Origin: Raillietiella orientalis
Taxonomy: Eukaryota
DNA length: 64,000 nucleotides
Reading direction: 5' to 3'
NCBI GenBank assembly: GCA_036172245.1
Contig: JAYWIR010000027.1
Span: 2,356,001-2,420,000, forward strand
In this document: positions 11,301 through 45,024 of the stretch, piece by piece
Layout of the letters: every line of letters starts with the position of its first letter
Position numbering within the stretch: position 1 is the first letter of the stretch
Notes under the pieces: model-generated
What the model saw: only the letters and a program-made list of their open reading frames with translations
Told to the model about the DNA's origin: nothing
The model's database searches: none
Program-made: the position numbers and the translations under genes

Positions 11301-11863
11301 AGTATAGTACTACATGTGTCCACATAAAATGTTCGTATAGTTTTTATATCTGAATGTTGTTGGACGATAATGTTCCACACCGCGCTTCCCCTTTTTCTTG
11401 ATCCGTAGTTGAATACACTAACACTGTTAGTGTTTCCCCGCGTCACAGAGCTTCTTTGCACGTGGGGCCCGTGCCCGTGCCCCAGCGGTTTCCCACAGCG
11501 AACTGTCGATTGTTCCAGGCCGGCGCCACCCTTCAGAGGATGTACTTCGAAAGTGGCTACCGCGGAGCCTTGTTCCGAGAGCTGTTGGAGCCTCCTGTCG
11601 TCTACCATGAATTCGTGAAAGAAGTGGGCGGCAAAACAGTTAGAAGTAACCAACACTTGCCTCCCAGAATAAGCTTGAGGTGCTGCGCCGAATTACCCAC
11701 TTTACTGTGTATACTTATGGTTTATGCCATTTGCTTCTTCCTGGACGTGAAATTTTTGACATTCTTTCTGCTCTTTTCGAGTTCGTTTTTCCTCTGGACT
11801 TGTGTTAAAGCCATCTGGCATTGGTCGAACCCTCCCGCTCTTGCCTCTGAGACGTCGTCTTGA
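2318..11863 (+). CDS. SMPD4: Sphingomyelin phosphodiesterase 4 (neutral sphingomyelinase 3)-like, 12 exons, ~718 aa
   Basis: Phase-consistent GT-AG exons: 2318-2344, 2511-2668, 2749-2890, 2941-3046, 6088-6464, 7052-7170, 7784-7942, 8533-8698, 8760-8903, 9940-10149, 10793-10996, 11519-11863. Peptides match recalled SMPD4 blocks in order: NIFG..W NLR, FDYPISWLP, AFEYFFFHFA, FWPMDGSFRLLIETWLSAIQPWRY, DFTSAKNALVVFRISK, PMFGSETR, YTGNPDLHPIRSKEVAWLVR and PRISLR, followed by a C-terminal hydrophobic anchor. Exon 1 is the least certain. Confidence 0.92.
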
Positions 11864-12698
11864 CGAGGTGTTCCTACTGGCAACCACGCACCCGTGGAAA
11901 CGATTCGGACTCCAGAAAATGCAACGGACTCTCCCATCGCCACCAAAGTTCCAGAGTGTCGGGATTTCTCTAATCATTCTACATGAGTATATTTGTTTGG
12001 AGGTACTAATAAATGTGTAAGAACCGATGTACACAAGAGGTTTGCCAATCGAGGTTGCGTTGTATTTGGGGCATGACGAACGGCATGGCTCGATGGCAAG
12101 AGTCCATTTGTCTTGCCAAACGCACTCTAGCCACTAAACGAAGCAGTCACCATTCTCCCGCGGTCATGGAGGGCCAATCCAGAAGATTCGAGCTTGGTAG
12201 GAGCAGCAGCTGCTGCAGAATGGTTCTGTTCTGAAGAAACGCTCAGTCCCTTCGACGAGACACGAAGCGAGGTGTAAGCGTCATTAGTGTTCGACTGACC
12301 TGAAAAGCAGGAGGAGGCTGCAAGCCACGAAGTAGTCATCCACACGAGGGGGTTCGCAAGCATATCGCTGTTTCTCCAGTCAATCTTCCACCAGTTAGGG
12401 ATTTTCCTCCTGCTCCTTTTCCGGAATATATCAGAAGATGCTTTTCCCCTTTAAAAAATGGATGTGTCCTGACGAGCTGTGAAAGGGCGATTGGGGGTGC
12501 GGTTTAGATGAACTCCTGAAAAGGGAGATCAGCGTCAGTGATTGCGGCGGAGATCCGGTCTGCATTTGCTCCCTGTACTTCCCAGAAAAATCCAAGACGT
12601 TTTATTTGCAGCACTTAGACTTCCACTGCCCTTTTCCAGTGAACCCGTGCCATACAGGAACAGTGTTTTCCCTTGGCCTATGGCGCGCTCCTCAACGG

Positions 12699-12855
12699 GA
12701 ATTTCTTCGCGCCCTCCCCGTTTTGTTTTGTTCGCCGAAACAAAATTGACCTCACCACTGGGCGGACTGCAGGGAAAAAAGGATTACAATTCGCATTTTT
12801 GAAAACACTCGTGAGCGCATCCGTACATCGAGATGAGCCACAAATGGACCTCCCG
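12699..12855 (-). repeat. ~157-bp dispersed repeat, inverted copy of 61411-61571
   Basis: Shared blocks with the reverse complement of ~61411-61571: GAATTTCTTCGCGCCC, TGTTCGCCGAAACAAAATTGACC, TTCGCATTTTTGAA and CATCGAGATGA..CAAATGGACCTCCCG. The ORF track shows the same peptides at both loci (SVHRDEPQMDLP; REVHL..ISM). Confidence 0.9.
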
Positions 12856-12971
12856 GGCCCTCTCGATGAAGTCTCGAAGTCCTGAGAAGCCCAGGAACGA
12901 GACAGTGCAAACGGCTCCAGGCCAGGCCTCGTTCCAGAGCGGCGTCATCTGATCGCCCACAAGCCCGTCGG

Positions 12972-13560
12972 ACCTCTTTGGCGCCGTGCGGCGGCAGTTC
13001 TCCGCGCGTGGCGCCGATCGTTGCCGGTTCGAATCCTCACGTGGAGGATCGATGCCAGGCAAATGGGTGTGTCGTGGGTTCCGAGTCCCCCACCCCGCCG
13101 GACGACGCCGGTCGGCCTGCAGGCTCCAAAGTCGGCAGTACCGGTGGAAGCCAGAAACCTCTGGATGCCCGCGTTGACGGGTCGGGGGCATGGGAAGCTG
13201 GTTTTCCAGGTGTCCCTCCAGGAATCAAGGAGGTCCCCACGGAGGGGGGAACGACGTCTCCATCTTGCACCATCTCGTACCGTGGAGCTGGTTAGCACCT
13301 CTCCAGAGTGTGAAGAAGCGCGCTGCTCCCTTCCGGGAGCACCCTTCAGGGAAGTCGGGAAGTGTCTCCCTTTTCAGAGGAGTGAACGAGGAGTGGATCC
13401 TTTCGTGGTTCCCTTCTGAGAAGAAATGAGGAGCGGCCTCCTCCAGGGGGGAAGGGGAAGCCCTCCAGAGAGATAAGGTATGAGGTTCCCTTCGGGGTTC
13501 ACTCCCAAGAGTAAGAGAGGAACGGACTCCTTCCTCCTCAGTCCTTCCCGGATTCATAGT
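12972..13560 (+). mobile_element. tRNA-derived SINE-like element, copy 1 (longest)
   Basis: A-box-like TGGCGCCGTGCGG (12979-12991) and B-box GGTTCGAATCC (13026-13036) lie at tRNA-like spacing. The body aligns by eye with 28150-28660 and, from TGTGAAGAAGCGCGCTGCTCCC onward, with the reverse complement of 59470-59742. Confidence 0.8.
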
Positions 13561-15964
13561 GTGGTCTCCTCCCTTTTCCTTCTCCTTGTCCAATTCACGG
13601 TCCCATGATACAAAGCATTGATAGTCGCAGAACAAGGCTGTGGAATCAGAACTAGCAACAGTGCTGATAAACTCACCACTGTTCAAGAGATGAAGAACAG
13701 GAGGAGGTTGGAACCATGGATGATTTCATTTTTCTTAAACTGTGAGCGTTCCCAGTTGAGTGGTCACCGAGCCACCCGATTCAGGTGGCCTACGTTGCTT
13801 AGAGTACTACAAACTGCAGCGATTCCATCGGCCCTCCAGCGTGGAATCTCGTGTTCGTAAACTCAGAATCCCTTTTCTTACTTTTCACACTCACTCCGAA
13901 TCCGAGCGGATGAAAGACATCTCGCTCTACAAGCTATCTGTTGATTGGAACTCTGTTGCAGTCGGTAAAGCCGACCAAAGTGAGAAGAGTGACCCGCCTC
14001 TGCACTTGTACGTCAGCAATCGCAATGCCACGATGCACTAGACATGTTTTTTTTTTTTCCTTTTTTGTGGTGGAAAGGGAACAGTGAACAAAGTGCAGCT
14101 CAAGAACTCATTGCAAAGCATACTTCAGATTGTTTCGCCTCAAATTGACTTTTTTGTTATCGATGTGATCTCTGGAGCCTTCCAAAAGTTAAAAATTGGT
14201 TGGAAGCCGTACTCCGGTTTGGTTTTATCGCCTTCCCTCGGAACACATGGAACCAAAAACAAACTGCAATGATGTAAAATAAAATTATAGATGGGAGAGA
14301 AGCATACCATTTACATGCTTGCGGGTAATGCTGTAAGAAGACACTGTAAGAAGCACTTTTCAGCATGCATGTTGTCTGCAGGAATCCGATTCTGAATGCC
14401 CCGTGGGAACGAGAACAATAGATACCTTCTCAAGAGACGTCAGCAAGCGATGCTACAAAATGAAATGCTAGAAACTTGCGAATTAGTCATTCAGTGTGGC
14501 TGCGATTGGCTACCGTCCCTGGAAAAGCATGGTAACAAACAGATGCCAGCAGTCACATGGAGCCGATCAAGACTCTTTTTATCCTCGCTTGCTAGCCTAG
14601 ATCACGTCACATCTCTTTTGACAGCAGCCAGGTCAAGGAGCCTAAAACCCATAAAAGTGAAGATTTCGATATCCGGATTGTCTTTACGTAAAAAACAGAA
14701 AGATCTGAAATCATATTCGAAATCCAAACCATAATGACAAAACTATTAGCGGAATATCTCCTGCGTTGATCGTGAGAGAACACTCGTCTTGCCCTTTGAC
14801 CATCACATTACCTTTTCTCCGCTGGGAACATGTCTTAAGCAATCAATAAGCAATACGGTTGATAAATTATTACAGTCAATTAGCAGTGCGCTAAACTCTC
14901 GTAGCATCTGCTCCGGAGGCTTTCTATCTCATACGAACAAATGGGCACAATCAGGTCAGCCGTGTGCTTTACGAATTGATCAAGAGAACGAATCCGTGCC
15001 GAATTTATTCAGAGTGTATTTAGTGTATTCGCTTCTCATGTTGAGTTCGAATCTCCTGGATTTATCCTCCGTGACCACAGGAAAATGGTGACCACTTCAT
15101 TTATCGGCAAGAATCCATTTGGCAGGGCAAACGAGGCACCATCGAACCATGCTGTTCGTCATGCTCTAAGTACAAAGCTTGGGGAAGAACATTTTATAGC
15201 ATGAATTACAAAACAAATTTGTAGGCAGATTTGAATGTTTGCTGAGTATGTACTTGATATCCAAAACTGAAACTTCTTTTTCCTATAAAGAGCTAAACTT
15301 ATGATGGCACTACAAATAATCAGTATTCATTTTGAAGTACGTGTAGTGGTGCAACAACCAGTTTTTAGTGTACGTACAATCTGATTGAAGTATTGTTTTT
15401 GAATTCAAAACAGAGAAAACCATGTTCCCACAAATGTTGAAAACACACACCCAAAACAAACAAAAAAACACAAGAAAAAAGACTTTTCTCCTCTTTTTGT
15501 GTTCTTAAATTGTACTTGAAAAGCAAACTTTACACATTCTTGTAGCACACTCAAGGTAAATAATAAATCTGCAATAAAAGTGATCCGACAACATATGCAT
15601 ATGATTCAAAAATTGTTCTTTGCATCGGATTCTGGATATTTAAGAAAATACATATGGCTCGTTTTCTTTCTTTAGCGTTCTTCTTATTCTTCCATGTACT
15701 TGTACTACGCATATATTCGTGTCGATATATTTGTGGTAATTCTGGCTGAACACTCATGGCCAGTGAACAATGCTTGTGATCAATTTGAATCGTTCCTTGC
15801 ATCAGAAGTATCGGTGTAAGTAACTCTCTTGGCAGTTGTGTTTGGTTCTCTGCTGTTTTACTAATAAAGGATGGATATTTTTGCATAATTTCGTCACCAG
15901 CGTCACTGTTAATACTGATGGTCTATTGGAACGTTCATGCAATGCTCTTAGAATAAGAGCAATT

Positions 15965-18900
15965 ATGCAGGAAAACCGAGTGACCTTTGATTTTCTGACC
16001 TTTGTAAACGGAACAAATGTTTTTTTATTTCCAGTGTGTTCGAATTCTAATTTGCATTTTGCATTATGATTAATGAAAAGGATATATTAACTTTTTATCA
16101 GCGTATAGAGTATCCTCCTATAATGAAAATATATCCTCTTCCAGGATGGTGTGGAAGGTAGGTTTTGTTTCGTTTTGTTTTCGATCTCTTAACGTATATT
16201 CATTTTGCAGGTCATATAGATTGGAGTATGTTGCTTATAGAATGGGCATGCTATCCGTTCTAAGAAGTAAAACGCTTCAAGGTATACTTTAACGGACAGC
16301 ATTGTCGCGTAGTAGATAGAACGTCGTTATACAACATACCTTGACCCAAACAAAATCCTTTACTTTGTGGGTCAATGTTTGAAACTTAGGTCAGTCATAA
16401 TGGCAAAGGAAAACTGGAAATGGCTTCATTACATTTTCTTAAGTACAACATGCACAAACTTAGAGATTGGGTTTCTAAATAAGGACCTAAGCGGATTATG
16501 CTAATGAAATATTGTTTGCGGTAATTCATTGATGAAGGGAAATAAAATCCTTTTATACATTTTTTTTATGAACATGTTATGTTAAGATTTCTTCACTTTT
16601 ATGAGTTACATTATCAGGCTTCATGTTAAAGGTTGCTGAATTTGCATTTCTTTAAGCCATTTCATTATTAAAATATGAATGTAATTTCAGAATGTAATAT
16701 TTTATTCAGAGTATTTCCGAGTATTTTTTTGATTGTTTAGATACTCCATTTATCCTTGATTCCTGCCCTTTCTTGATTTATCTTATCTGTTTCAATGCAA
16801 TCATTAGTCTGTGTTTCATTTCCTGTAACAGTTTTCACGCACTTTTAATGGATTTTAATTTGGATCTCTATTTTCCTTAAACTTTTTGGATGTGTTCCAT
16901 TCTGAAATTAGATGACCATGTTTTTCTGAGACCTTTCTTTTTTGTCTTTTTATGTTCAGAGTATATGCAGTTTACTTTTGTTACTAGTGTTACTTTCCAA
17001 ACTTTTACTGTAAATCACCCTTAAAGCAATTTTTCCCCCGAGAAAATGCTTTTGTTTTGTATTGCAATGTACTTTTTGTTTATGAAGTGAGCTTTCTATT
17101 TTATTTTGGATGTTTTTAGGGTTTTTTTTTTTTCATCCATGTATTGAAAAGGGTTAAGATATCATATGTTGAATTCATTGTATGATTTCAGTGTGTCACA
17201 CCTATTCATTTATTATTGTGGTTCTGAACTTAGCATTTCATCTCTTTTCCATTATAACTCTGTTTCCAGCTTTTAATTTGTATTAATATCAAAAGGAATG
17301 TGACATGAATTTGTATTCTATCCTATCAAATACAAATTTTTTTATGGGCATGTTTATGAGTTTTACATTAGTAAGTTGACCAAAGATGCATTTATCCATA
17401 TGTTGTTTGCATCCTCATTCTCAAAGCACAATTTAGCTTGCTAATAATTTTTCCTCAATGAATATTTCCCTTAAAGCATGTGATTGTTTTTAAACATGGT
17501 ATTGTGGTTTGCTATTAATTGCACCATTGCGATCATACCAGGGATGGATTTCAAATATTTTCATCTCTTTCTTGTTGAATATACAGTTGTGAATAAATTG
17601 TGTTTCCTGTCTTTCCTGGTTTAAAATTTTTCAAGTTGTTGATGACAATCAAGAGCATTCAGATGTAAGAAAATGTAATCACTACCACAACTACCAAAAA
17701 TCGATGCTTTAGCAATCCCCATTCCTTCTCCCCTTTTCCGCACAGTTGCATTTTCTGTGAACATCAGTTACCCAGAACCACTTCATTTCTTTCATTTATG
17801 CTTTTTGTTAATCCTCCCAAATTAATTCTTTCAATTTTCTCTTCAATTTCATTTATTGTCTGTAAAGTGCTTGGAAGACGTTAAATCTTAATTTAATCAC
17901 TGCATGAATGCTTAGGTTATTAGAGTTCTGAATAGAATTAGAATATTATTTTTGTTTCTGATTGCACTGTTTTATTTATGTCTGAGGAGCATTCTTGTAA
18001 TAAGATATATTTGGTTCATCATACTAATTACATTGCAAATACTTGCAATAGGAGCTGTTGTTGGCATATGGATGGGTTTTGGTGATGTTCTTCATGCAGG
18101 CATGTATTCTGTGGCAGTCTTGGAACCCAATGGAGATGAGCTGGAAGAAAAATGGCAAGATGCTTTAGAAAAACTTCTCATTTGCAGGTAGGGGATGGGT
18201 GATTTCAATTTACTTCATGTTATCTGTCTGCAGATATGGTCGTGAAAAGTGTACTATTAAAATTGCATCAGTTTTGCATTAAAGCAAAATGAATATGTTA
18301 CTGCTTCCATGGAAGTGGATGCATTGATGTTGCTAATCATTACCATAATAATAATAATGAGATCAATATACAATATTTAAGAAAGAGAATAGTAAACTTG
18401 AAAAGTGTAGATTAAGTTTGATAAGCTTTGAAAATAAAATATTATAAATGCATAAAGAATTGTGCAGTTTTATACACTGCATAGTTATCAGTATTGTTTT
18501 GTGAACATTGCCATAAGTAATGGGACTATAAATGCTTTTAAGCATTTATAGTCCCATTACTTATGGCAATCAGCATTTGCAATCAGTAGAAGTGAAGAAT
18601 TTGTTACAATGCACTCCTAGGGAGATTTTTGTTTCAAACGCAGTTTTGCTGTATAAGCTCCTGTAAAATGTGACAAATCGTAAGGTATCAGTCTTGAAGT
18701 TCTTTGGAGCTTCATAAATGAAATGCTCCAAAGAGATTTAGTTGGAACATTACTATATTATTATTATTATTATAAGTTGCTTGGAATTTTTTACTAATAT
18801 TAACTTGCTAATAATACAAAATTTCAACATCTTTTGCAAACAACAATGTGGGATGCCTTCAGTGTATTTTATTGTGTTTCCTCGAATCGAATAGAATAAG

Positions 18901-21900
18901 TTAGTTTTGACTATTTAGCGAGGAATGAAATTTTGAAAAAACTGTTTGTAGCACAGGACAGGAGTTGCTGACTGAACTTTCAAAAATTATTTCCACCTTT
19001 GACGTTAAATTGTGTGATCCAGCCATGGTTATGGTGGGCAGAGATGCAAGGTGAGTAATCAGACTAACTTTTTCAAAGCCAGTTTAAGAACTATCATTCT
19101 AATCTTGCTATTATATTTCAGAAGTGATAGCCAAGAACTGTGCGAGGCAGCTTTGCAAGGTATCAGGCATTTTGAATGTGTAGTGAAGGATCTTGGTGTG
19201 GTCACAACATCACAGTTTCACATTATTTTAAGAGGCTTCACTTTGAAGTGTGATGAACCATCAGAAGAAGGCTATTTCATTAAATATAGTACTGCTTTCA
19301 GAGATCTCATACAGCACACATCAGTAAGAATGCAGTCAATCCTGGGTTTTGTTCGCATTAAACTCTTCAGACTGAATTAATAAGTTTGCAAGTGGATGGA
19401 GGAAATGGTGCTGCTGCCATCAAACTGGAAAAATTGTCCGAATACCTAAATGATATTCTTATAATAGATGTTTACAATAAAGGAGAGAAAACAACCGAAG
19501 CGGACATAGAATGTGGAGCCGACTATGTTAGATTGCAAAATCGAACTCCATTAGGGAAAGAAATAGATCCGATGACAAAGTGTGCATCCCTGGCTGGTCG
19601 AGGAGACAAAATAGTGTATTTCTATACTAATTGGAGCGATGAAGTGTACCTTCTAGATGGTCATAGAATCACAGCACTTTGTAAGTAACAAGTGGAAATC
19701 AATTAATAATTATAAACAAACTCATTAGTTACAGTTATATCTCTATCATTGTTTATTAATTGGTCCCTTATCATTATTATCGCTGAGTATCGAATATGTG
19801 AACTTGTTATGCAATATGATACATATATACAGCAGGATGTACACGAAAAAAGGAGTTGTTTCAAGATACCTCGCCTCGATAAACCGTACGTGCGTGATGC
19901 CTTCACGTTAGTTGCTTCGAAACTTGCCTTGGAAGGGTTTTTGCTAGTTAGTTTGTACAGAAATTCCAATCCATGATTACTTTTGCAGTGAACGTATAGC
20001 AACTTTCCTCAGCGTTTCGGAACAAAGAATAAGAAATTCAAGTCAGCCGAGTATTGCAGTAATTAGGCGAAATGTAGGTTTCTCTGTTGTAGGATTACAA
20101 AAATTGGACACTAATGGTTTCGTGTTCTGGGGTGAAAAAATCTCGTCTAACGTCTTTTTTTTTTTTTTTAAATGTTGTGTTAACTTTTCCTAACTGATCG
20201 ACATTTGCATCAGAGTGTTTTTGTGTGTCGATCTATGTGGGTTGACGAATCTGGAATGTTGTCAGGGTTGGACTTTCTCATGCGATCACGTTTGTGCCAT
20301 TGCCTTGATCTTCGTAGTATCTCCAGGGTGAGGATGCACACGCAGCCAGAAGTGACTGGATTTTCTCCCGAGTTTATCTGCAATGTGCATGCATGTTGTT
20401 TTCATGCTAGACTAAGTGGTTTTTGATTCTTCCTTTTCACATTCAGCCCGGAGCATCATCCCGTGCTGCCCCTAAATTTGTAGGGAATTCTGGATGATTG
20501 CTCCGCCTTCGCCCATTTTTAGCCTCTTCTATTGGATCTATTTTCTTCGATATTTCCTCCTATGTATTCCATGTAATGCGATGTATTCTCTGTTATCAAA
20601 AGCAGGTGTGTTGGTTAATCGATTCAAATTTACACCCACAGTGCAATGTGGATTCGAATGTGTAAAGCAGCTTGTTGTGGCGGTTGTACAACACTCAGAG
20701 AAGTAGATCCGCATAGTTTGAGGGTCGCAAAAGTACCGAAAGTCAAACACTTTCCACAGTAAAATGCTCATTCCTACACTACCTCTGTCTTCTGTCGGTG
20801 TGTTGGATGAATTACAACTGTCATTGGAGTGCTAAGTATGCAGGTATTTTGTAGTCCAGATTCCCCAGCCAGGAAAGGTCAAGGATAGCATGCACGCTTA
20901 ATTCAATATTGTGAAGTAATGCAAAAATACCCTTTCGATGCATGCCGTACCCTTCATTGGGATTGTTTCAGCAGCTGCGCCCTTTTGTGGCGAGCTGGGT
21001 TGCAGCAAGGATCTTGCATCGGTTGATGGTATTGCAAAGATCTTTTAAATGCGCTGATGTGCAGCACCTTGCTGATTCTCATGCCAGTGAATGTCTTCCT
21101 CCCTTGACACTGATGTATTACGAATCTCCGGTGAAACGGGAGAAAAAGCGTGTGCATTTCCATTGCTGTCTTATTGCTTTTGTGAAAGAATTACGAAACG
21201 TGATAAAAGCTTCTGATTATTTGCGGTTAGTAACAACCGCAAATAACCAGAAGTACTATCACTAAGTACGCACGCAGGCGAGTATCATGAAAATGCAACC
21301 CGCAAGCGTCTTTGCACCGATTGCAAGAATAAGGCTCTTGGAAGAGGTCTTCCGTGCCCAGACGTTTGCAGATGGTAGCTCAATGGCTCGTGTCTGCAAA
21401 GACTTCGAGTCATCAGTCGTCGTCACTTAATTTATTGGGATTATTATTAGTACCGGAGGCCACGAGCGTTGGTCCTGTAGACCTTGTTCCCTTGCGGTTT
21501 CTTTCCAGTCGTCATTACGCCAATTACTCTTCGAACGGAAGTCCAAAGAGTTGCGAATACTCGCCTACTGCGACCAAGTCTCTGCAATGTTCTTTCGTGA
21601 TGCAACCGGCGAACTGCGTTTTGCGTGGACTTCGACGACACGAAAAGTGGATGTCACAAGCCGACAACTTCATTCTCAAGTAGTGTGTAACTTGAAGGCA
21701 GTGGACTGGAATGCACGTGGTAAAAATGACCGAGCAAGGAAGGACCATCGTGATGGGTGACTCCGTAGCCACGAAGAATCATTCGAGCTTTTTTGCTGTT
21801 TGGGTCCGTTCCTTTGTAGGTCGTGCTTATTTCATTTTCACTTCAACGTGAAGCGTGCCCATGTTTTCTGGAAATGACAGAGCATTTCTTGTGGCATTCG

Positions 21901-24900
21901 TTCCCAGCGAGGCTCCCTGCTTGCCTGCTTTTTTTTTTTTTTTCTCGTGATCTTCTTCCTGATGCGCCATTTTTCCATAGGTCCCGTAGCCTCGAAAAGC
22001 GATACCTCAGCCATCGTTCTTCCAAGTGGAAGAAGCGTGGTGTCTGCTCCTGAGCTGCTCTCGAACGAGACGGTTGCACCGGAAACGACATTTGCAGTTT
22101 CGTAGCCCCCCGTTTAGTGATGTATCGCGAAGTCAGTAGCAGCATCGTTGATAGGGAATGTTCTTTCCAGCAACCGGTAGTGCCCAACACCACCAAGTTT
22201 TGGCTTCTTCCAAGACCTTCTCAGCTTTTCTTATTTCAAGCTCAGGGAGTCCCAAGTTATCCCTAATTGCAACAAAAATGTCTCCTGTTACTCTTTGTTG
22301 CCTCTCCATTGCCATCAGATTCAAAATCTCATTTCGTTTCTTTTTTAGATGCCAAATATTTTGTGGAGCTTTCATTGGCTTCTGTCATGCCACGAAAAAC
22401 ATCCATAGGTGTTGTGCACACATGTTGTGTCGAAGGAGGTGTTCTTAAATATCTAAAGGATATTTTGGTAAATTTACGAAAACGAATTCTCAATAACTAA
22501 TTATTATTATTATTAGAACGTGACATTAGTTTGTGTTGCAGTAGCTAACACAGCAAAGTTAAAAGAGAAAGCTAAAGAGTTTGATATAGGTATCTGTTTA
22601 AAACCCATTGGTCACGTCACTGTCGTATTCGGTGATGAATTCAAGAAGTGTATTGACGAAGCTGCCTCAGAAAACAAGTGAGAACTAACAAGGAAGCATG
22701 CGATTGCAGTGGAATTTGATAGCTTTCGATGATTCAAATTGATTTGCTTAAGCTGTATATCTGTTTAAAGAGTGCAACCATCTAGTCAGACCTGTAAGCC
22801 TGTATCAATAGTATGAATGAACGTGAGGATTGTTCCAGAAGTGCCGTGATGGTCAGTCGAGCTAGAATTTCACGAATTCTCTGTTTATTTTGGTGTGTGC
22901 TAAGGCGAAACAGGAAGGAACAGTAAAGTGAACGTCCAGATTGTGCTTCTCGTGTTTGTCACCGTCTTAACTTTCCGCATTTGCTCCACACGTTATGCCG
23001 GCGGGTTGCGAAAATCCCTCGAGCAGTCGCATGTGAAAGAGTTGTGGCGGGTCTTCCGCGTTCTCGTGTTTGCATCCATGGAAGGTCCGTCTTCGAGCTG
23101 CCACCGGTTCGGACGGTCATGTGGATGGATGGCTGCCCATCGAAGTAAAGACAAATCACAGTAGCAGCCGTATAGTAACAAAGTCGAGTATCGTTTGGTG
23201 CAACTTTTTCCCGTTCCACTCGTCCACGCCGCATATCCGAAATAGGCAGTTCAGCGGATCAGGTTTGGGTGAATAGCAGGTGCAGTCGAGCTGGAGTGAT
23301 GGCACTTTCGAGCAGACTTCTATTCCCCTTTTACGCAGTTTCATCTTTCCCTGCAAGTTCGGAAGAGCCTTTTTCGAAGAATGCTTGTGAACGTGCTCAA
23401 GAGAAGCGAAAGTGGCGGCAGAAGAAATTGTTCAGCTTCTCAGGTTTCCCTTGATGCGCAGGCTGGACTTTCGGGGCGATGCTCTTTGCATTGGTTGCCG
23501 TGTCCTCTTTGGGTGGTTGATTTTGTGGCTTGGGCGCACGCGCTGCGGTCGCATGTGGGTCGGAAACCGACTTGGCGGAATTTAGAACGAGTCTTGGCCA
23601 CACAATACGAGAACCCTTGCTGCCCAGAAAATGCGGGAGGTGGGCCGTCGGAACCGTGTTTGTAGTTTTAATTTTTTGTTGCCACCACGGCAAAACATTT
23701 TTGCTTCTTCACAGTTTGTCTTTTTTTTATCCTTCAAGACCCGGAGTTTCCTTGGTGGTACTTTGGTGCCCAAGTTGACTTCCTCTTGCGTTCATGTGAT
23801 GCCACGTTCCGCAGTAGTTGGGATCTTTCAAAAAATATCCTTGCCAATTTTTTTGGCGAAGATTTTCAGAGTTCTTGGTTTCCATGTTTACATGATAAAA
23901 TCTCCTCAAAATGCTGGAGCGAGTACTTCCAAGAAAACCTCTGTAAGAGTATGGAGCTATTCAAAGCCGTTGACTTCGTTCAAGGATTTTTGTGATTTCC
24001 GAATACTGTGGAAATGACCTCAGAGGACTTCGCCGTTGCTTTGCTCCAGCAAAAATTTTTGCCTCGCATCATTGGCCATTGCAAATTTCTAGGACGTTGA
24101 ACGTATCTTGCCTTGTTTAAAGTTGGAATTGGGAAGTGTTTGCAACTTTGTGATAGTCGTGTAGCCAATAGCCTATCTTTTTCATTTTTCTTCCCCTTCT
24201 CATCTGATTGCACCTCTCAGACACCCGAGTGTTCGCACGGTTCTTTTCATCTAGCAGTGAGATGACACCTTCTCACTGAGATTGAGATTTCGTTTTCTCT
24301 GCGTGCCTTAAGTGTTACTGAAAACCTCCCTTGTATTGCACTTGGGAAGTTCTATGTCCGCGGTATAAACGAAACCAAACTGTTGTTGCTGCCTTGCTAT
24401 TCTCTCCGAGAAGGATTGGCAGCGTACACTCGTTTGAATCGTGCCGTGTTGCTCGACCCTTGTGGTCAGGACACACCCCAGCCGAATCCAGATTTCACGC
24501 GAAAGTGTTGAGGGCGGCCTGCGTCGTGGAATCCTTACGTTCGGATGCATAGAGCAGAGTTTTCGGTACGTGAGGCCGACTCGATTACCCATCACTTTTA
24601 AGTTTATCTTATGCCACCTCAAGTGTTCTATGCAGTTAGGGGCTTCCCCCCAGAACTGCATGTGATCACTCGTCTTGCGGGTCGAGTAGAAACTGTGTTT
24701 ATTTCTTATCGATCGCCTTAGGGAAGGGTTGAGCATGACTTTTACGCCAAAGCGTCGTCCATGTATTCGTGATACATAAAAAGGGACGTAAATTGTTTGC
24801 TTTCAGTGCTGATCCTGCAACTGTTCGCCTTCAAAAGTCTACGCAATTACTTGATGTGGTTACAGAGGATGCTTTGGTTCACTTATTGTTCATAGAAAGT

Positions 24901-25387
24901 ATTCTGTATTATTTTGAGATGTCTGTAGAAGGTTGGTACAATTTGTATCACTCTGAACCAAACTGCCAGATCAGAATAAACATTGAGGTATGGTGTTTTT
25001 TTTTTTTTTTTAAAAAAAAAAAAATCAACTTCAAAGTGCCTTTTAGAGCAAGTTTGGTGTTGCAATAGACGACGCAGGTCAGTTCACATACCCATGTGAG
25101 CTTGCAGACAAGTTGGTGGATATTTGTACGGCGTTTGTCCCATATCGTTGTAAGCCTAAGTACACCATCAGGTGGGAACGCTGCTGAATGATTCGCGCCT
25201 CTTATTTACTCGCATTAGAGCTGCAGCAGATCAGAATCTAGTGTGGATTCATGCTGAAGCCGAAAGTCAAGAAATCGCAAATAAGCTCGCAGTGTTTGGA
25301 GCACAAAGGGTGTACCAGTATGCACAGGGCATTGGAAATAAGCCAGAGTATCCTATTCCTACCTATCATGATTTATCTCATCCGTAA
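15965..25387 (+). CDS. Phosphoacetylglucosamine mutase (PGM3/AGM1)-like protein with degenerate catalytic motifs, 12 exons, ~555 aa
   Basis: Phase-consistent exons: 15965-16003, 16102-16157, 16211-16281, 18052-18187, 18952-19050, 19122-19323, 19371-19680, 22349-22467, 22517-22677, 24807-24987, 25047-25171, 25219-25387 (1668 nt, no internal stop). PGM3 landmarks appear in order: YRMGMLSVLRSK, VMVGRDAR, DLGVVTTSQFH, VDGGNG, CGADYV, DKIVYFY...LLDG, SIGVVHT, KAKEFDIG, IHAEAESQE and GIGNKP. Exons 1-2 are less certain. Confidence 0.9.
18507..18570. repeat. Perfect 31-bp inverted repeat with a 2-nt spacer (intron 4 of the PGM3-like gene)
   Basis: ATTGCCATAAGTAATGGGACTATAAATGCTT-TT-AAGCATTTATAGTCCCATTACTTATGGCAAT, read directly from the sequence. 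Confidence 0.97.
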
Positions 25388-28149
25388 CCGGATTTCCAGC
25401 GTTATCAGCCTATTTTGCTGAGCCATGTGATGAAAGGAAATGGAGAGAAACTCTCACAGGAAAATGTCTGGCGGGTCAAGCAGAGGCTATGCCAGGTATC
25501 CCTCCTCCGCGGAGTGTTTCTTGCAGGCTGCCACATGGAGAGTGGCTGTTATGCAACTGCATTCTGGCGCTGTGATGTTGAACCTCGAGAATAGATTTTA
25601 TACCATTTCATCATTAGCGTGTCGCTTGTTCCGTTTTTTTTTTGCTATTCCATAACTCTCAGTTGTTCAGAAAGCGCGTGAGGCATTTTTGTGAGCGACC
25701 CGCCGTAATGTCTTCAGCTCTGTCGGCTTAGAGCTGCCTTGCCACGTGAACGCTCCTGGGGGGGAAGCTCTCCGTCCTTTCCCGAGTTGAATGCTGGGTA
25801 CGCATGTGTTTGGTTTTGATGCCCATTCCCTGCTTCCTGGTGAATACCGGGCCTTCCACCGTGTTCCCAGCACGAGCTCGTGGATGTTCCGTAAGGGATC
25901 TTGCGTTCTGCTGCATCTGCTGGAACAGAAGAAAATTCGAATGTTTCCCCAGTCTGTTCCAGAAACTTTGCACCGATGGTCGTGCGCGTTCATCTCGAGT
26001 GTTTTCCGTTCCCAGTTGAACTCGATTGCATCAGATGAGTGGGACACCTTTGCCACGTTGACAACTGTCCGAGATTGATCCCCTTTCATTTCTTCTGGCC
26101 GAATTTTTGCTTTCTCTCATCCTTCCACCCCCCATCCCTTACCATTCCGAGAAATGGATCCTCTGGCACTTTTCCCAATTTCCCTGGACCCTCATCCTGG
26201 TTTTCCATTCTGTTACGTCTGTGCCTAGTCGCTGCTGTGCATCTCGAGATTCTTGTACTACCAGGAGTCTTCTGCGGAAACAACTTCCGTTTCAAGCGCT
26301 GCAGTTATTCTTTTCATCGAGTCTTCAAGCTGAGCTTTCTGCGGCATCGACCATGTGCTCATCGACTCCTTCGACTTTTCCGATGTTAGTCAGTGATGCG
26401 GGATTTGGTCCTCACGCCCAGCGTTACGTCTCGGGCGGCAGATCGCCCTTCGGTGGAAACGTGGGCTATGGGTTGAAAATGGGGCACCCGACAAATAGGA
26501 AGGAAAATATCTCCACCCGTCGGGATCGAGCAGAAACACTTCTCCGTCGTCTCTGCAAAGAAGGGGGGAAAGGGGGTTTCTTATCACCGCTGCTCCGTCT
26601 TTCAGCGGTCTCTGGGGCTCTGCTACGCCTCAAGACTACACTGCGTCGAACGGGAACGCTGGAAGCTTTTTTCCTTCCTCTAAAACCAAACGCTGCCACG
26701 TGTTACCGCACCTCTTCCGTGCCACTCAAGGAGAAACCCCCCTTTCACCATTCCGGATCCTCATCCCGAAGGAACGGTGCTGCCGCCGCCCTCAGGCTGC
26801 ATACCGAGCCGTTGTCCCCGTGCTGTAAAACAATTTTGCGTCTCTCGGCGGGGAAAAGCTGTGCATCGCCATTCTTCCCGTCTACCTGCATTCCCTCTTC
26901 CGAGCCGTAGCGTAGAGCGTCATTCTCTTCTGCTTCCCGCAGCAAGAGTTGATCAGCCGGTCTTTCGTCCGCCTCGCTGGAAGACATGTGAGCGCTGCCC
27001 GAGAGCTTCCCGGCCCAGGTTGAACAAACAGGGTACGCGAGGCAGACGATCCGGTGGGCGCGCTGACTCTGCAGACGACCTGTACCTCCTCCTATAGCCA
27101 TCCAGGATGACCTCACATTGTGGCGTCGCAGGGACTCTGCATGGCACGTGCTGCAGGCGATTGGAAAGGGGATCAGAAGAGGTCCCAACTCCTTTTACAA
27201 ATGGAAAAGGAGAAAGAAATATGCGCTCATAATTCTGTTGGACAGGGATCAGGTCCCTGGTGAAAGCAGCCGAGCAACAGGAAAGCTCTCTGAGAAAGGA
27301 CTGCACAGAGGGAATGGGGGTTGGGCGCCACGCCCTTCACGGTTGAGGTCAGATCCCTCTCCACGGCCTGTCGACCGATTGCCTCTCCACCACGACGGGC
27401 GGAGGAGACGCGGTTGAGGAGGTGGTTTCTGCGGGTGGGAGGGAGTGGCAATGAATGACCAGGAGGAAGCTCAGGAAACTTTCCCGAAGGGAGGCTTCAC
27501 TTGGAAGGGCAGCGGTTCGAGGGCGCGGAACCAGGGAAAGGGGGGCGGAATGAGGGTGCATTACCTTGTTCCTTAGGGACGCGGCTGCAAGGCGAGCAGT
27601 CTCGCCGCGACGCCGGCCAGGGCGGAACGGGTCGTCCCTCCGAAATCTGCGCTTTCCGTCTTCACTTAGAGAAGCCTCCGCGCCGGAAGCCAGGACAGGG
27701 AACCCCTCGAGGCGTTTCCGACTCGGGATGGCAGAAGGGATGAGCGAAAGATTTTTGCAGCACATCTGTGGCCGTACACTGCAGTGTGGGATCGGACGGT
27801 TTCTCTTCATCCCGCACCCCTTTTGTACGGATCGAAAACGCAGGCCGCTTCGCGCATGCCATCATGCGACGCGCGGAGCAGCCAGGGGGCGCGTCGCTTC
27901 GCGGAGAAAGCGGAGAGAGGACAGGGGACGTTCCGAGGAGAGGGGGGAGGATGCAGCCGGATCTTCCTTTCGGTGTCATGCATCGCATAGGGTAGCGAAC
28001 TGAGCTATCCGATCCGGAAGACGCTCGCGGGGAGCGCCGCTCCCTCCTCCCTGCACGGTGGTCTCTCCTGCGGGACGTTGCCGTCGTGAGGTGCAAAACC
28101 CCATGACCTCCCTGCTGAGGGTCTGCCTCCCTTTTCCATTCCACCACTG

Positions 28150-28660
28150 CGTGCGGCTGCGGTCTCCGCGCGTGGCACCGAGCGTCGCGGGTTCGAATCC
28201 CGCCTGGGGAAGGATCGACGCCGAGAACAGAAGATGCGCCGAGGGATTCGAGTTCCCCCCTGCGGGACGACACTGGTTGGCCTTCAGGCTCCAAATGCGG
28301 CATCGGTGGAAGCCGAATGCCACCGCTGATTGATTGGCCGGGATTGGAAACCGACCCTCTGGGGTCCTTCCAGGAATCAAGGGCCAGGTTCCCTTCGGCT
28401 TTCCCCTCCTATTATAAAAATGGAGCCTCCGCTCCCCTCGCGGGAGAGGAGAGGGGGAAGGGGAATCCTCCATCTCATACCTTGGACCTGGTAACATCTC
28501 TCCAGAGTGTGAAGAAGCGCGCTGCTCCCTTCGGGGAAGGGCTCTTCGAAGAAATTGGGAAACGTCTCTTCTAGAGGGTTCTCTTCAGAGGAGTAAACAA
28601 GGAGCGGATCCTTTCCGAAGGGTCCCTCCTGAGAGAATAAGGAAGAGGTTCCCTTCAGAG
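28150..28660 (+). mobile_element. tRNA-derived SINE-like element, copy 2
   Basis: Perfect T-arm GCGGG-TTCGAAT-CCCGC (28187-28203). It shares TCTCCGCGCGTGGC, CAGGCTCCAAA, CGGTGGAAGCC, CCAGGAATCAAGG and CTCTCCAGAGTGTGAAGAAGCGCGCTGCTCCCTTC with copy 1. Confidence 0.8.
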
Positions 28661-31600
28661 ACAACCACTGCGTGCCACCAGGGAAACCTCGGAGTGGACC
28701 CGGCCCGTGCGCTGCCCGGCGCTGGAGCGAAGATCTCGTAGTCGAATGTGGGAGGATCGCGAACCCATCCTTACGGCCTGCGCTCGTCCAGACGCAACGG
28801 CGCCCGGTGGTGGTTCCTATTCGGCGCGGGGCTGGATGGGAGGGGGGGGGGAGCGACCTTGAACACGTGGCGCCACGTCACGGGCACACGAAACGCAGTC
28901 GCTGTGCCGACTCCTTCCCGTTCTCCTGCCTTCGACTGCAACGCATGCGCACTCGCTGGAAGACTGGCTCGGATCCTGCGGCGTAGTTTACCAATCCGGG
29001 CACTTCCAGCCCGTCCTGCCGTCACTCCGGGAGACGCAGCCTGGGGGATTCGAAGCATTGTTGCGGGATGCGGTGACGTAACCGCTGCGCGGAGCGGTGC
29101 GGGCCAAGCGGCGGCTTGCGTGTTCAACGTGGGGCGAGTTGGCTCCTCGTCGCGGTGCTGGCCCAGGAAAGCATGAAGTGACCCTTGGTGAATGGGCTTG
29201 GCACAAACGAGGGATGCAGGGGAAACAACACCTATGGTAAGATGAAATATCCGGCATCCAAGGAAATTACCCTCACGTACACCGCACACAGACACACGCA
29301 CACACATACAAAAGCAGAATTCATCACTTTCGTACGGAGCATTTTGTGTTCTTTTAGCATTCACTCATTCCGTGCTTGGAGTTGCCATCGCCTCGGAAGC
29401 GTAGTTTCTTGTCTCTAAGTACCACGCAAAATTCTCGCCATTGAGAAGGGAGAGGAATCTTTAATCGTGTGGAATGATTAATGGGAAATCGCACACTTGC
29501 AGCTTTTACTTCTGGCCGGGACACCAGCGTTTTGCTTCGTACATGGTGCACCAGTACCAACATCACCGGAAACAATATCCAAAAAATGTACCGAATACAC
29601 GTCGGAATCAGCGTCTATTTTATTTTTATCTTTTTCCTGTTGTTGTTGACTGTTTGCTTTACAAGAATTTGAGGGAAAGCCTTCTTTGCATCTTTCGGTG
29701 AAATAACAAATGACTCATTCTTTCTGTCCTTGGACCTTGGCGCCACTGCGTGTTCTCTTAGGCATTTAAAACGAGCGCTACCGGATTAATGAACTACGAA
29801 AACTTCCTTGAAGAGTTCAACTGCTGATACCTAAATCCTGTGGCATGTCTCTGCTCATCTCCGTCCATCTCCTCTCGTCGGATCAGACCACGTCTCGGAC
29901 ACGAAAGGAAGCCTAAATAATTATCTTCCGAAACTGTTGAGGTACATCTCATATCGCCCCTTGAGATCTGTGTTTTGCTAGCGTGAACCACATACATTAG
30001 CGAGAGCAGGCGGGAACTCTTACGGTAATATTTTTTTGAACTCACTGATTTGCTGCCGGAACTTGATCGTTGTACTCAGGTAGGTGTACACTGTAACTAC
30101 CGACTGCGAGAGGAATTCTTTCGATGATACATTCATTCATTTCAATCACATGCAAATAATGGATGCGAAATGCTCATTTTCGAGAGCAGGATGGAAGGAA
30201 AGAAAAGAAAAGAAAAAAAAAAAAAAAGGACCAAATAGAGAACTGCCATAATGGAACACGTTGCGTATATGATTTTCGAATTTCCGTCGACATGTGCAAC
30301 CAACATGTGTTTTCGTCAAGGATTAATCATCAGAAAAGTATTTACCGAAGGAGAATTCATTTATTTACGGGATTCGCCGCGCTATGCCACAGAGTCATTT
30401 TTCCCTTGCCGTGCAGCTTCCACGGTGTAGCCAGAGCGGCGCTCTCGCAGCAGCCGCTCTCATTATACGGAATTCAGAAGCTGTTTCCAGGAGGTCTTGG
30501 GAGAGCCGTGTCCGACTTTTTTGGTCGCGGGCCAAGTATTCTTCTTTTTTCCCTCCCCCCCCCCCTCCCCATCACTGCGCATATACCAACGCAGGGGAGT
30601 CCTTCACTACATAGGAGCGCTTCGGAAAGTATATGCGGGATAGAAAGCAGACCTCAGAAACACGTCACGAGCAACGCATTGCATTGCGTAAACGTGTTCT
30701 TCCATGCAGTTCATCCCAGCAAGCGAAGATTGGGGAAATGTTCTCGGCCGGAGCATAGTCACCCTCTCTCTCTTTTTCGAACATGGCTGGCATCTTACTG
30801 TGCTCTGAAAACCACCTTTCTCCGGGTGAGTCTGCGTCTTCCCTGATCGTTGTCTAGACTAGCTCACGACAGTCACGACTGCTGTACTGGGAGAATCTCT
30901 CCGGAATATGTCATACCCACTCCGGTCGCTTTCGTGTCGACGATTTCCTTATTCGCTTTACCGCTTCTCTTCAGAGGAACGAACGTGAAGCTATGCTCTG
31001 CTTCGAGTGACGCTGGATGCAGGATGCTGCCAGCTTCACGTGGACCTGTCGTGACGCTCCGAGAAATGCAGCTTGCCAGGAATTTTTCCGTTTGTCCTGC
31101 CTTGGTGGAAGAAAGCAATTCTGCCTTTTCTTTTCTTCTTTCCCTTGGCCATTGCGTAATCCTCCTGCTTTTTCGGAACGGTGTCTCTCCCAGCAAAAGA
31201 GAACACCTATATCCCTCTGTCCTCTCCTGATGGGATTAAAGGAACAATCCCAGATGCGAGCAGCCGGAGGCAATTTACGCTCTTAATTATTCAGGCTTTC
31301 CCTCTAGAAATCGATCGAGGAGTCGCATGTCTGCGAAAGGATGTGTCCTCCGCTCTGGTGTAAACAAGAAGAGGAGCGTCATCAGCTGCGCTCCGGAGGT
31401 ATCGGGTCCGGAGGCGGCGGATGCTCACCGCACGAGCGCGTCCATCGGACGGATCCTTTGTAGGCTCCCGGTATCGATCAAACAGGCCGGTTTCCTCCCC
31501 CCCCCCTCCTTTCCTCCCCCTCGGATGCCCAAGCCCGCTGGAAATAACCTCGGCGCCGGGCAACAGCAGCGGCGGGAAGCGCAGCAGCGGCCAACAATGC

Positions 31601-34600: not shown

Positions 34601-34721
34601 AATCCTGATGTCAGCCCCCACCCCCACCCCACTTTCGGCATGTGGGTGAAGACGAGGGAAAAGCGGATTTCCGGGATACATGCACCCTACTCGCATCCAG
34701 CTTCGACACCACGCAGCGTGG

Positions 34722-34785
34722 AAACCATTTCGAACCCGGTGGTATCCGCGCACTGCAACCGCGCTCTCTCTACCACCGCTTGTTT
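34722..34785 (-). pseudogene. Possible degenerate tRNA-Ala(TGC)-like or SINE-head remnant
   Basis: The minus strand reads GTGGTAGAG...GCGCG-GTTGCAG-TGCGC...CCGGGTTCGAAATGG: a D-arm-like motif, a 5-bp stem with a 7-nt loop centred on TGC, and an imperfect B-box. No acceptor stem is evident. Confidence 0.3.
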
Positions 34786-37700: not shown

Positions 37701-38156
37701 GAACGAGGTCCCCATTCTCACCGAGCCGTGCCTGCCCCACCCCAAATGGAATGAGCCGGGGAGCTCTGACGTCACGGCAACAATGCAGCAGCAGCGAGCC
37801 GTTTCCCTCCCCGGGTGCCTTTTTTTTTTTTTGCCGTGCCGCCTGATAGCTGGCGCGCTCTTCGCGGAAGGAAACGCAAGTGGCGCTTCAGCCATCACCG
37901 CTGTCGCTGGAGGTGATGCCAGGAATGCGAGGACGTATCGCGCGGAACCAAGAATGTGCCGGACACCAGGCAACCCGCGAAGAGGATGCGGAGACCGTCC
38001 TCGTTGTCGGGGCAACGGGGGGGGGGGAAACAACCAAAAAATTTTCTATCTCTCTCTCGCGCGCGCTCAGGGGGAAGAGTCTCAGAGTCGCTCCCTTCCG
38101 CCGGCCTGGGTAGCCACCCGCATGCGAAGAACCCGGCATCATCTGGGAGCTTCCCG

Positions 38157-38810
38157 ATGGACCCGAAGGAGGCGCTCATTGACAACGTGGGCTTCAACTG
38201 CTGCCGCATGATAGATCGGGTGCTGAGCAGGCTGAACGCCTCGCAGTCCCAGCAGACCGCGTGCTCGGCGCGACGCCGGAGGCAGCGCCTGCCCTGCTGG
38301 GCCCCACCTCCATCCACCCTGGGCAGGGATAGCTCTCTGCTATCCCTCTGCTCTGAGGTCCGGAGGAACGTACGGGAAATGTGCGACGGCGTGCTGAGGA
38401 AGCTGAGTCCGGAGTTCACCTCTCTCCTGGAGCCGCTTCCTCCCTTCCCCCCTCTTGAGAAGAAGAAGGGAGGGGGGGAAGGCAAGGAACCTGGGGAGCC
38501 CGACCGTCACAGCCAGTGGCGCGGCCGGGACAGCGAGGAGCCGCAGCGCCCCCGTCCGCAGCAGCACGTGCAGCCGGCCACCCCTCGAAGCGCCGCAGCA
38601 ATAGTCGCCGGCCTCGAGCCCTGCGGCGGCGACCGCGGCGCAGGTCGCGCCAGCCCCGCCGTCGAGGGAGGATCGTGTCGGTGGGAAACCAGGCCGCCGT
38701 CCTGGCCGCAGCGGCGATGCCGGACGAGGGACGCCTCTCTGTCTCGGAGGGCCGCGAGAGGGTCTCACAGAGCTGAGGAGTGCTCGTCTCCTGGAGCCAG
38801 AGGCACCCTC

Positions 38811-38850
<40 letters not shown>

Positions 38851-44949: not shown

Positions 44950-45024
44950 TGTCTCATAACACAACAGAACAATCCATAGTTATCAACATCAAGACAATGA
45001 TCAGTTTCAACAAATCTCATCCCC

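Follow-up and report, generated by a model that had tools for sequence, protein, structure and literature searches.

PGM3 is the product of a single-copy gene and performs an essential step to UDP-GlcNAc, thereby feeding chitin, N-glycans, and O-GlcNAc, and UDP-GlcNAc is required by arthropods for chitin and N-glycans. The alpha-D-phosphohexomutase transfer that interconverts GlcNAc-6-P and GlcNAc-1-P depends on phosphoserine and Mg2+. To our knowledge, the only well-known inactive member of the superfamily is PGM5, in which the active site is retained. PGM5, or aciculin, is described in PMC7761743 as an inactive vertebrate PGM1 paralog, without mutase activity, that acts as a structural protein. 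Four active-site loops of PGM3 are named in PMC3763426 (active serine, metal-binding, sugar-binding, and phosphate-binding), and according to PMC5570346, TASH shows strict conservation and all five human paralogs, inactive PGM5 included, possess the three Asp residues that bind metal. Here we describe a PGM3-like gene on the + strand (16066-25387) of the window, by which we mean the whole 64,000-nucleotide stretch of Raillietiella orientalis DNA that was analyzed. From its sequence, we consider it reasonably likely that this gene is a pseudoenzyme gene maintained by selection and not a product of neutral decay.

Gene model and homology

The gene model was built using tblastn with 11 canonical PGM3 proteins, inspection of the sequence, and a script check. 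It comprises 11 coding exons totaling 1665 nt, or 554 codons plus a TAA stop, with no internal stops. Splice sites were picked to preserve the frame and by homology, each exon being a homology-supported, uninterrupted ORF. The features are listed below, together with an alternative 5' exon.

15965..16003, + strand: alternative 5' coding exon (12-exon version); donor TTT/gtaaac, joined to acceptor ..tatcag/CGT at 16102
16066..16157, + strand: coding exon 1; donor AAG/gtaggt; contains YPLPGWC
16211..16281, + strand: coding exon 2, RLEYVAYRMGMLSVLRSK region; tblastn; profile positions 33-55
18052..18187, + strand: coding exon 3; GFGDVL at the phosphoserine-loop position; DNG.K also lost
18952..19050, + strand: coding exon 4, with VMVGRDA-R at its end; tblastn and profile
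19122..19323, + strand: coding exon 5, domain 1/2 boundary, TTSQFH; tblastn; profile E 4e-10
19371..19680, + strand: coding exon 6, covering the bulk of domain 2, with VDGGNG, CGADYV, and the AGRGDK metal loop; matches A. fumigatus AGM1 at E 1e-11; profile E 2e-26
22349..22467, + strand: coding exon 7; tblastn; GVVQTAYANG reads GVVHTCCVEGG
22517..22677, + strand: coding exon 8; Pfam AMG1_III E 2.3e-07; TGVKH lost, LKPIGHV at the sugar-binding loop
24807..24987, + strand: coding exon 9, domain 3/4; EDALVHLLFIESIL and W..LY...P kept; tblastn; profile E 4e-09
25047..25171, + strand: coding exon 10; donor CAG/gtggga at 25171/25172; placed from sequence and frame alone
25219..25387, + strand: coding exon 11; tblastn; R-AAADQ phosphate loop; stop TAA 25385-25387

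The ten exon junctions fall at 16157/16211, 16281/18052, 18187/18952, 19050/19122, 19323/19371, 19680/22349, 22467/22517, 22677/24807, 24987/25047, and 25171/25219. All 10 introns are of the GT..AG type, with all 20 splice dinucleotides intact, a purine at +3, YAG acceptors, and consistent phases. The short introns measure 47-71 nt and the others are longer, there are no frameshifts to bridge, and the GC content of the coding sequence is 0.40, whereas for the majority of the AT-rich introns it is 0.18-0.31.

Starting the gene at ATG 16066 makes an extra intron unnecessary, and because a stop lies in frame upstream, this ATG is the earliest start possible without an additional intron. The frame also stays open when the alternative first exon at 15965-16003 is joined to 16102, one of 12 donor/acceptor combinations that keep the frame, yielding 13 aa instead of 12 and thus a protein of 555 aa from 12 exons. 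As far as the sequence can tell, the two exons are equally possible candidates for the 5' end. An earlier note on this DNA had described a stop-free frame of 12 exons and ~555 aa. When rebuilt, that frame was open and is kept here as the alternative beside the ATG 16066 model, and the exon 18052-18187 and the junction 25171/25219 given in the same note were recovered exactly.

When ORF pieces of at least 12 aa were searched with the family profile, 9 of the 11 exons were recovered independently, with one match each, in order, and on the + strand. The profile scan of the window's ORF pieces gave no match for exon 1, and for profile positions ~458-494, where exon 10 lies, the + strand yielded nothing below E 20. 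A candidate exon at ~19989-20130 (ERIATFLSV...) was rejected: its phase is incompatible with the strong donor at 19680, and both tblastn and the profile put exon 7 at 22349-22467.

The spliced protein matched a local profile of 32 canonical members with 321 bits (E 4.4e-100) over positions 27-532 of 533, and 14 of the 534 core columns are deleted in it. It matched Pfam AMG1 domains II and III, the latter in the exon 8 region and above the cut-off (E 2.3e-07), and exon 6 retrieved the PDB entries 5o9x/4bju of fungal AGM1 (E 1e-11) and 2dka (E 4.6e-08). The best matches are AGM1/PGM3 and not PGM1/PGM5, and the protein is 26% identical to canonical members, which are 37% identical among themselves. 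Judged by its sequence, then, the gene is a full-length, collinear alpha-D-phosphohexomutase homolog of the PGM3/AGM1 branch, and the whole-length profile match bears out the same assignment in the earlier note. A search of the whole window against Rfam gave no matches.

Active-site loops

Alignment to canonical PGM3 showed that YGTAGFR is replaced with YPLPGWC (16132-16152). At the phosphoserine loop, TASHNP reads GFGDVL (18075-18092), with Ser becoming Gly, and the T, A, S, H, and N of this motif are each found in 31 of the 32 references. The metal loop DGDADR reads AGRGDK (19593-19610), where the third Asp alone survives; the motif D[GA]D.DR is carried by 141 of the 150 library matches listed. 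The sugar-binding loop FEANGHG has become LKPIGHV (22598-22618), in which G-H are the only survivors and Glu and Asn are lost, and the phosphate loop RPSGTE has become RAAADQ (25170-25171 and 25219-25234), with Trp in place of the next conserved Arg. Further near-invariant active-site motifs, i.e., DNG.K, QTAY.NG, and TGVK, are also replaced. The motifs RMG.L..LRSK, GRDAR, VDGGNG, CGADYV, KAKEFDIG, and HAEAESQE are kept. Degenerate loops in all four domains and a set of retained structural motifs had both been reported from the letters before; every quoted loop motif was found and aligned to the expected loop, and all of the retained motifs were located in the spliced protein.

Overall, the protein keeps 40 of 88 near-invariant columns, whereas each of the 32 references keeps at least 71 of 90 (79%), and mostly more than 93%. 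Retention is 5 of 23 inside the loops compared to 35 of 65 outside them (Fisher p 0.014). No alternative exon with a canonical loop was found in the window by a six-frame motif scan or a profile scan of ORF pieces of at least 12 aa, and neither these scans nor tblastn found an active PGM3 paralog within it.

With the nucleophilic Ser gone, along with two of the three Asp that bind metal, Glu and Asn of the sugar loop, and Ser, Thr, and Arg of the phosphate loop, and from what is known of the family, we infer that the protein would be incapable of phosphoserine- and Mg2+-dependent transfer between GlcNAc-6-P and GlcNAc-1-P. Binding of these two compounds has probably been lost as well. A role as a ligand sensor for GlcNAc phosphates appears unlikely, since the sugar- and phosphate-binding residues are gone too.

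Fold retention and rival explanations

Among the 122 columns conserved as hydrophobic, 112 (92%) are still hydrophobic in the PGM3-like protein, the reference minimum being 93%. In-place shuffles gave 58 +/- 5 such columns, with none of 20000 reaching 112, and re-aligned shuffles (n=25) gave 78 +/- 4.6 (64%), with a maximum of 85. Divergence is spread unevenly over the exons. The identity of exons 2, 4, 5, and 6 to canonical members is 0.83-1.16 of the identity that those members share with each other; the same ratio is 0.59-0.73 for exons 7, 8, 9, and 11 and 0.35-0.48 for exons 1, 3, and 10, exon 3 being weakest at 0.35. In neutral simulations with 56% of residues changed, ~17 stops arose on average and the frame stayed open in none of 4000 runs; at K = 0.1, 0.2% of runs remained open. 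In general the genome does not evolve fast, as seen from the exon of a neighboring SPAK/OSR1 kinase, which shares 77-82% identity with proteins of insects and isopods.

The degenerate loops, the retained hydrophobic core, and the failure of simulated neutral frames to stay open are what lead us to read the gene as a pseudoenzyme gene. With the frame and splice sites intact and the core conserved, selection would have retained it for a non-catalytic role over the greater part of its divergence, and UDP-GlcNAc would come from a canonical PGM3 at another locus of the genome. By analogy with what vertebrate PGM5 represents for the PGM1 fold, the fold would most likely act as a protein-binding or structural platform; the non-catalytic role itself is conjecture, as are the scaffold and regulator roles proposed in the earlier note.

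An unexpressed pseudogene, derived from a duplicate of PGM3 or from a gene that once encoded a pseudoenzyme, decaying neutrally and with no disabling mutation yet, seems unlikely to us, even though several observations suit it. An ortholog is absent among the library matches listed and the metagenome contigs, and exon 6, used as a query against two protein collections, did not retrieve the protein itself. AATAAA and ATTAAA are absent within 1.2 kb 3' of the stop, and the variants listed for the first 1.0 kb past it are only AATAGA at 25590 and AAGAAA at 25929. Repeat-bearing, GC-richer DNA (0.41-0.60 per 100 bases) begins within ~100 bases 3' of the stop, and introns 6 and 8 are swollen by 2-2.7 kb of GC-richer sequence, so the locus has been disturbed. 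Nevertheless, drift that replaced 48 of 88 near-invariant residues would be expected to leave the ~17 stops of the simulations, and it would not be expected to spare every splice dinucleotide, to hold the core at 92% when re-aligned shuffles reach 64%, or to leave non-catalytic exons resembling canonical PGM3 as much as canonical members resemble each other. Pseudogenization fits only if a dead paralog that had been maintained for a long time was silenced very recently. The earlier claim that this is not neutral decay is thus upheld by the open frame, the 20 of 20 splice dinucleotides, the near-canonical core, and the concentration of losses in the catalytic loops.

That the protein is still an enzyme, as a sole and highly divergent PGM3 or as a neofunctionalized catalyst using other residues (for example, an Asp beside the former Ser position, the metal-loop Asp-Lys, or the sugar-loop His), is very unlikely in our view. 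Ser, His, two Asp, and the sugar and phosphate ligands are all lost, in a family where DGD.DR is kept by 141 of 150 library matches listed and for which PMC5570346 describes strict conservation of TASH and retention of the three Asp even in inactive PGM5. A sole dead copy is also implausible in an arthropod, given the need for UDP-GlcNAc in chitin and N-glycans. In favor of an enzyme, the fold and several conserved polar residues (GRD.R, VD..NG, CGAD, D279, H376, R499, and E512) do persist. It is more improbable still that the open frame is an artifact of splice-site choice or assembly. The splice sites were indeed selected by homology and frame, and two first exons are equally possible, but every exon is one uninterrupted ORF piece, the family profile independently picked out 9 of the 11 in their order with one match apiece, and the boundaries lie on consensus sites with no frameshift bridged.

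Relatives and known systems

Using exon 6 as the query, no ortholog was found among the 150 matches listed of 209 in the protein library, where the best matches are 29-48% identical and all listed matches spanning the metal loop are canonical except P0061 and P0074. A word-based search of longer proteins with exon 6 returned 190 candidates, none at E <= 0.001, which is weak evidence, and a scan of metagenome contigs with the same exon returned 265 pattern matches, none of which were confirmed. The ESM Atlas yielded only weak bacterial PGM_PMM_II leads for exon 6, at 0.80. The 120 matches listed from a PGM3 profile search are nearly all from vertebrates (mostly fish), plus one oomycete-like sequence, and include no arthropod. 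The lineage is poorly sampled, as the best match to the neighboring kinase exon is 82% identical. Since the ortholog search came back empty, purifying selection is read from a single sequence. In a tree, the PGM3-like protein sits on a long branch within an unresolved polytomy, with a terminal branch of 1.99 substitutions/site compared to a median of 0.77; a second, quick tree again placed it in an unresolved polytomy and did not group it with P0061.

P0061 is a 233-aa PGM3-type fragment from a public protein library (Pfam AMG1_III E 1.1e-10). Similar to the PGM3-like protein, its metal and sugar-loop regions are degenerate: the metal loop reads MNYEGSK, CGADYV reads AGAGYV, and the QTAYANG, TGVKH, and FEANGHG regions are degenerate too. 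However, it is 28% identical to the PGM3-like protein (rank 15 of the P0061 matches) and no nearer to it than to canonical PGM3. P0061 could represent either a separate instance or the translation of a pseudogene. It is a doubtful but conceivable extension that dead PGM3-type proteins form an unrecognized, recurrent pseudoenzyme class, with our gene and P0061 as independent recruitments and PGM5 as a convergent counterpart, the active site here being fully erased. The role in such a class could be tuning of flux in the hexosamine/chitin pathway or that of a structural adaptor. A literature search found no description of a dead PGM3 paralog, in line with the remark in the earlier note that none was known. 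The PGM3-like protein would provide a clear natural example of re-use of a fold after its chemistry was lost and, if the gene is expressed, a handle on non-catalytic functions of the PGM3 fold in arthropods. We would also caution that a homology-based label of phosphoacetylglucosamine mutase may mislead about function.

With canonical PGM3/AGM1 (EC 5.4.2.3; C. albicans 2dka/2dkc/2dkd and A. fumigatus 4bju/5o9x), the PGM3-like protein shares the collinear four-domain architecture and a similar length (554 aa compared to ~530-560), and it differs in that all four active-site loops are replaced. The trypanosome AdoMetDC prozyme, as presented in PMC5201418, offers the general idea of a dead duplicate kept for regulation; the prozyme regulates an active partner, whereas no such partner of the PGM3-like protein was found in the window. 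PGM5 belongs to the same superfamily and is a precedent for non-enzymatic use of the fold (PMC7761743). It is, however, of the PGM1 branch, and it is described as still binding substrate and as retaining both TASH and the three Asp of the metal site (PMC5570346, PMC7761743). By the marks of PGM5/aciculin (PGM1 branch, TASH, and three metal Asp), our protein falls outside that group, being of the PGM3 branch and having lost TASH, two metal Asp, and the sugar and phosphate ligands.

Gene model and setting

The PGM3-like gene was rebuilt as follows by tblastn with 11 full-length canonical PGM3 sequences drawn from the library search, together with splice sites read directly and a script check.

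Coding exons of the PGM3-like gene
16066-16157, + strand, exon 1
16211-16281, + strand, exon 2
18052-18187, + strand, exon 3
18952-19050, + strand, exon 4
19122-19323, + strand, exon 5
19371-19680, + strand, exon 6
22349-22467, + strand, exon 7
22517-22677, + strand, exon 8
24807-24987, + strand, exon 9
25047-25171, + strand, exon 10
25219-25387, + strand, exon 11

Uninterrupted by stops, the 11 exons sum to 1665 nt (554 codons and the TAA), and all 10 introns are GT..AG with a purine at +3, a YAG acceptor and consistent phases; seven measure 47-71 nt and three 0.76-2.7 kb. The earlier note had proposed 12 exons and ~555 aa; its open frame, its exon 18052-18187 and its junction 25171/25219 were all recovered, but the rebuilt model has 11 exons and 554 codons and starts at ATG 16066. 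The difference arises because the note used an alternative first exon, 15965-16003, which splices to 16102 and also keeps the frame. Introns 6 (19681-22348, 2.7 kb) and 8 (22678-24806, 2.1 kb) have a GC content of 0.43-0.47, and since their size and GC are unlike those of the adjacent AT-rich introns of 47-71 nt, GC-richer DNA is suggested to have been inserted there; their ORFs had no Pfam match. Intron 3 holds a 64-nt near-perfect palindrome (97%) at 18507-18570.

When the family profile was run over all ORF pieces of at least 12 aa in the window, each matched part of the protein was found once, in order and on the + strand, with no duplicate or alternative exon in the window and no + strand match under E 20 for the exon 10 region. 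In a six-frame motif scan the locus showed no canonical loop of any of the four kinds (serine, metal, sugar, phosphate), and the 5 chance matches all lie outside the PGM3-like gene.

Family membership is clear. Exon 6 matches solved fungal AGM1 structures (5o9x and 4bju, E 1e-11; 2dka, E 4.6e-08), while exon 8 matches Pfam AMG1_III above the family cut-off (E 2.3e-07) and aligns to 2dka over the sugar loop. Against a profile built from 32 canonical members, the whole protein reaches 321 bits (E 4.4e-100), spanning positions 27-532 of 533 with 14 of 534 core columns deleted. Its identity to 33 full-length references is 26%, against 37% among those references; its terminal branch is 1.99 substitutions per site versus a median of 0.77, and it falls in a polytomy of the tree. 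An exhaustive phmmer search with exon 6 (1.84 billion representatives) gave 209 matches with an E-value of 0.001 or less; identity is 29-48% for the best 150, among which there is no orthologue, and a metagenome scan with exon 6 confirmed no match. Because the lineage is so sparsely sampled, a missing orthologue says little.

The following domain matches flank the gene.

Neighbouring features
2738-2989, 7767-8000, 8501-8743 and 10658-11104, + strand, PF14724 (mit_SMPDase) pieces, E 1e-06 to 8e-12
47417-47668 and 48236-48520, + strand, Pkinase exons of a SPAK/OSR1 ('frayed')-type kinase
53019-53363, + strand, OSR1_C exon of the same kinase

The upstream gene (within 2738-11104), which we take to belong to the SMPD4 family, has four ORF pieces that follow the profile in order from position 68 to position 723 (of 818). 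A kinase exon of the downstream gene (47417-53363) has its best database matches in OSR1/frayed proteins of insects and isopods, 77-82% identical, and the collection contains nothing closer. On this evidence the source is an arthropod-like animal without close relatives in the collection, and its genome as a whole is not fast-evolving. The kinase's Pkinase exons lie in 33% GC DNA and its OSR1_C exon in 54% GC DNA.

GC in this eukaryotic window is very uneven (0.30 to 0.67 per 2 kb), with blocks of 53-67% at 11000-14000, 26000-44000 and 52000-64000 and 30-35% elsewhere. Among the ORFs of at least 75 aa scanned in these blocks (all but the last 61, from 55.7 kb on), none had a Pfam match, and the long ORFs give Arg/Gly/Ala/Pro-rich translations that are not protein-like. 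The blocks contain dispersed repeats of 77-86% identity (13296-13558 with 59472-59755; 12699-12855 with 61411-61571; 28150-28643 with 12985-13338 and 59608-59757) and are possibly non-autonomous repeats. A 48-nt perfect palindrome lies in a GC-rich block at 56802-56849. GC skew is strongly negative (-0.41) across 44001-46000, at a GC-rich/AT-rich boundary, and a short 36-nt tandem repeat occupies 44196-44264.

Active-site loops

Two papers name as defining regions an active serine loop, a metal-binding loop, a sugar-binding loop and a phosphate-binding site, describe TASH as strictly conserved, and place the three metal-binding Asp in all five human paralogues, inactive PGM5 included (PMC3763426, PMC5570346). 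In alignment, all four regions and other near-invariant motifs differ here, in agreement with the earlier claim that every catalytic loop is degenerate.

Canonical motifs and their counterparts in the predicted protein
TASHNP: GFGDVL
DNG.K: MYS.A
DGDADR: AGRGDK
QTAY.NG: HTCC.EG
TGVK: VA(N)TA, one residue longer
FEANGHG: LKPIGHV
RPSGTE: RAAADQ
conserved Arg after RPSGTE: Trp
YGTAGFR: YPLPGWC

Near-invariant columns were those with one residue common to at least 85% of the 32 references; of 88 such columns the predicted protein keeps 40, and the references each keep at least 71 of 90 (most above 93%). D[GA]D.DR is present in 141 of the best 150 of the 209 exon 6 matches; the other nine are 3 fragments ending before the loop, 4 unrelated repeat proteins and two library proteins, P0074, whose DGDAGR has the third Asp replaced, and P0061. 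These comparisons support a protein that is dead by sequence.

Selection or decay

The frame is open, and none of the 20 splice dinucleotides is disrupted. When the coding sequence was allowed to drift neutrally in 4000 simulated runs, with substitutions only (indels would add to disruption), changing 56% of residues produced a mean of 17 stops and not one open frame; even at K = 0.1 (20% of residues changed) the frame stayed open in just 0.2% of runs. In the predicted protein, 55% of near-invariant residues are gone. There are 122 columns with a hydrophobic share of at least 90% among the reference residues, and the predicted protein is hydrophobic at 112 of them (references: minimum 93%, median 98%). 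In-place shuffles gave 58 +/- 5 and reached 112 in none of 20000, and as a control for alignment bias, 25 re-aligned shuffles gave 78 +/- 4.6 (maximum 85) and the reversed sequence 80. Losses are uneven: the four loops keep 5 of their 23 near-invariant columns and the rest of the protein 35 of 65 (Fisher p 0.014), and identity to canonical members, relative to their mutual identity, is 0.83-1.16 for exons 2, 4, 5 and 6, 0.59-0.73 for exons 7, 8, 9 and 11, and 0.35-0.48 for exons 1, 3 and 10. Exon GC is 0.40 versus 0.18-0.31 in most AT-rich introns of the gene.

Taken together, the open frame, simulation, hydrophobic core, uneven losses and exon GC indicate that the fold has been conserved while the chemistry was released, as is characteristic of a pseudoenzyme, and they uphold the earlier note's rejection of neutral decay. 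We weigh four readings. A non-catalytic PGM3-type protein maintained by selection is the probable one. Against it, neither AATAAA nor ATTAAA occurs over 1.2 kb past the stop (25388-26600), and GC-richer DNA (0.41-0.60 per 100 bases) sets in within ~100 bases of the stop; in the first 1.0 kb the listed poly(A)-signal variants comprise just AAGAAA at 25929 and, ahead of a T-run, AATAGA at 25590. That the gene is a pseudogene, unexpressed or only recently silenced, is unlikely but deserves to be kept in mind, although a pseudogene formed by neutral decay is opposed by the simulated frames, the splice dinucleotides and the hydrophobic core. Residual or new enzymatic activity seems very unlikely, and a modelling artefact is slightly more improbable still.

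Other inactive relatives

P0061 is a 233-aa PGM3-type fragment (Pfam AMG1_III, E 1.1e-10) with MNYEGSK at the metal loop and AGAGYV, VIMSAGCNTG and FDEEGFG in the CGADYV, QTAYANG and FEANGHG regions. It is 28% identical to the predicted protein, which ranks 15 among its matches and is no closer to it than canonical PGM3 is; a quick tree gave both very long branches and did not join them. Judged from these alignments, P0061 shows that degenerate PGM3-type sequences occur beyond this locus, and it is no proof of a single family.

Among the matches listed in full-text literature outside subscription journals, no dead PGM3 paralogue was described. The nearest functional precedent is PGM5/aciculin, an inactive structural paralogue of PGM1 in which the active site is preserved and substrate binding persists (PMC7761743, PMC5570346). 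The two differ in branch, the predicted protein being of PGM3 type and PGM5/aciculin a PGM1 paralogue, and in the active site, which is wholly lost in the former but retained in the latter.
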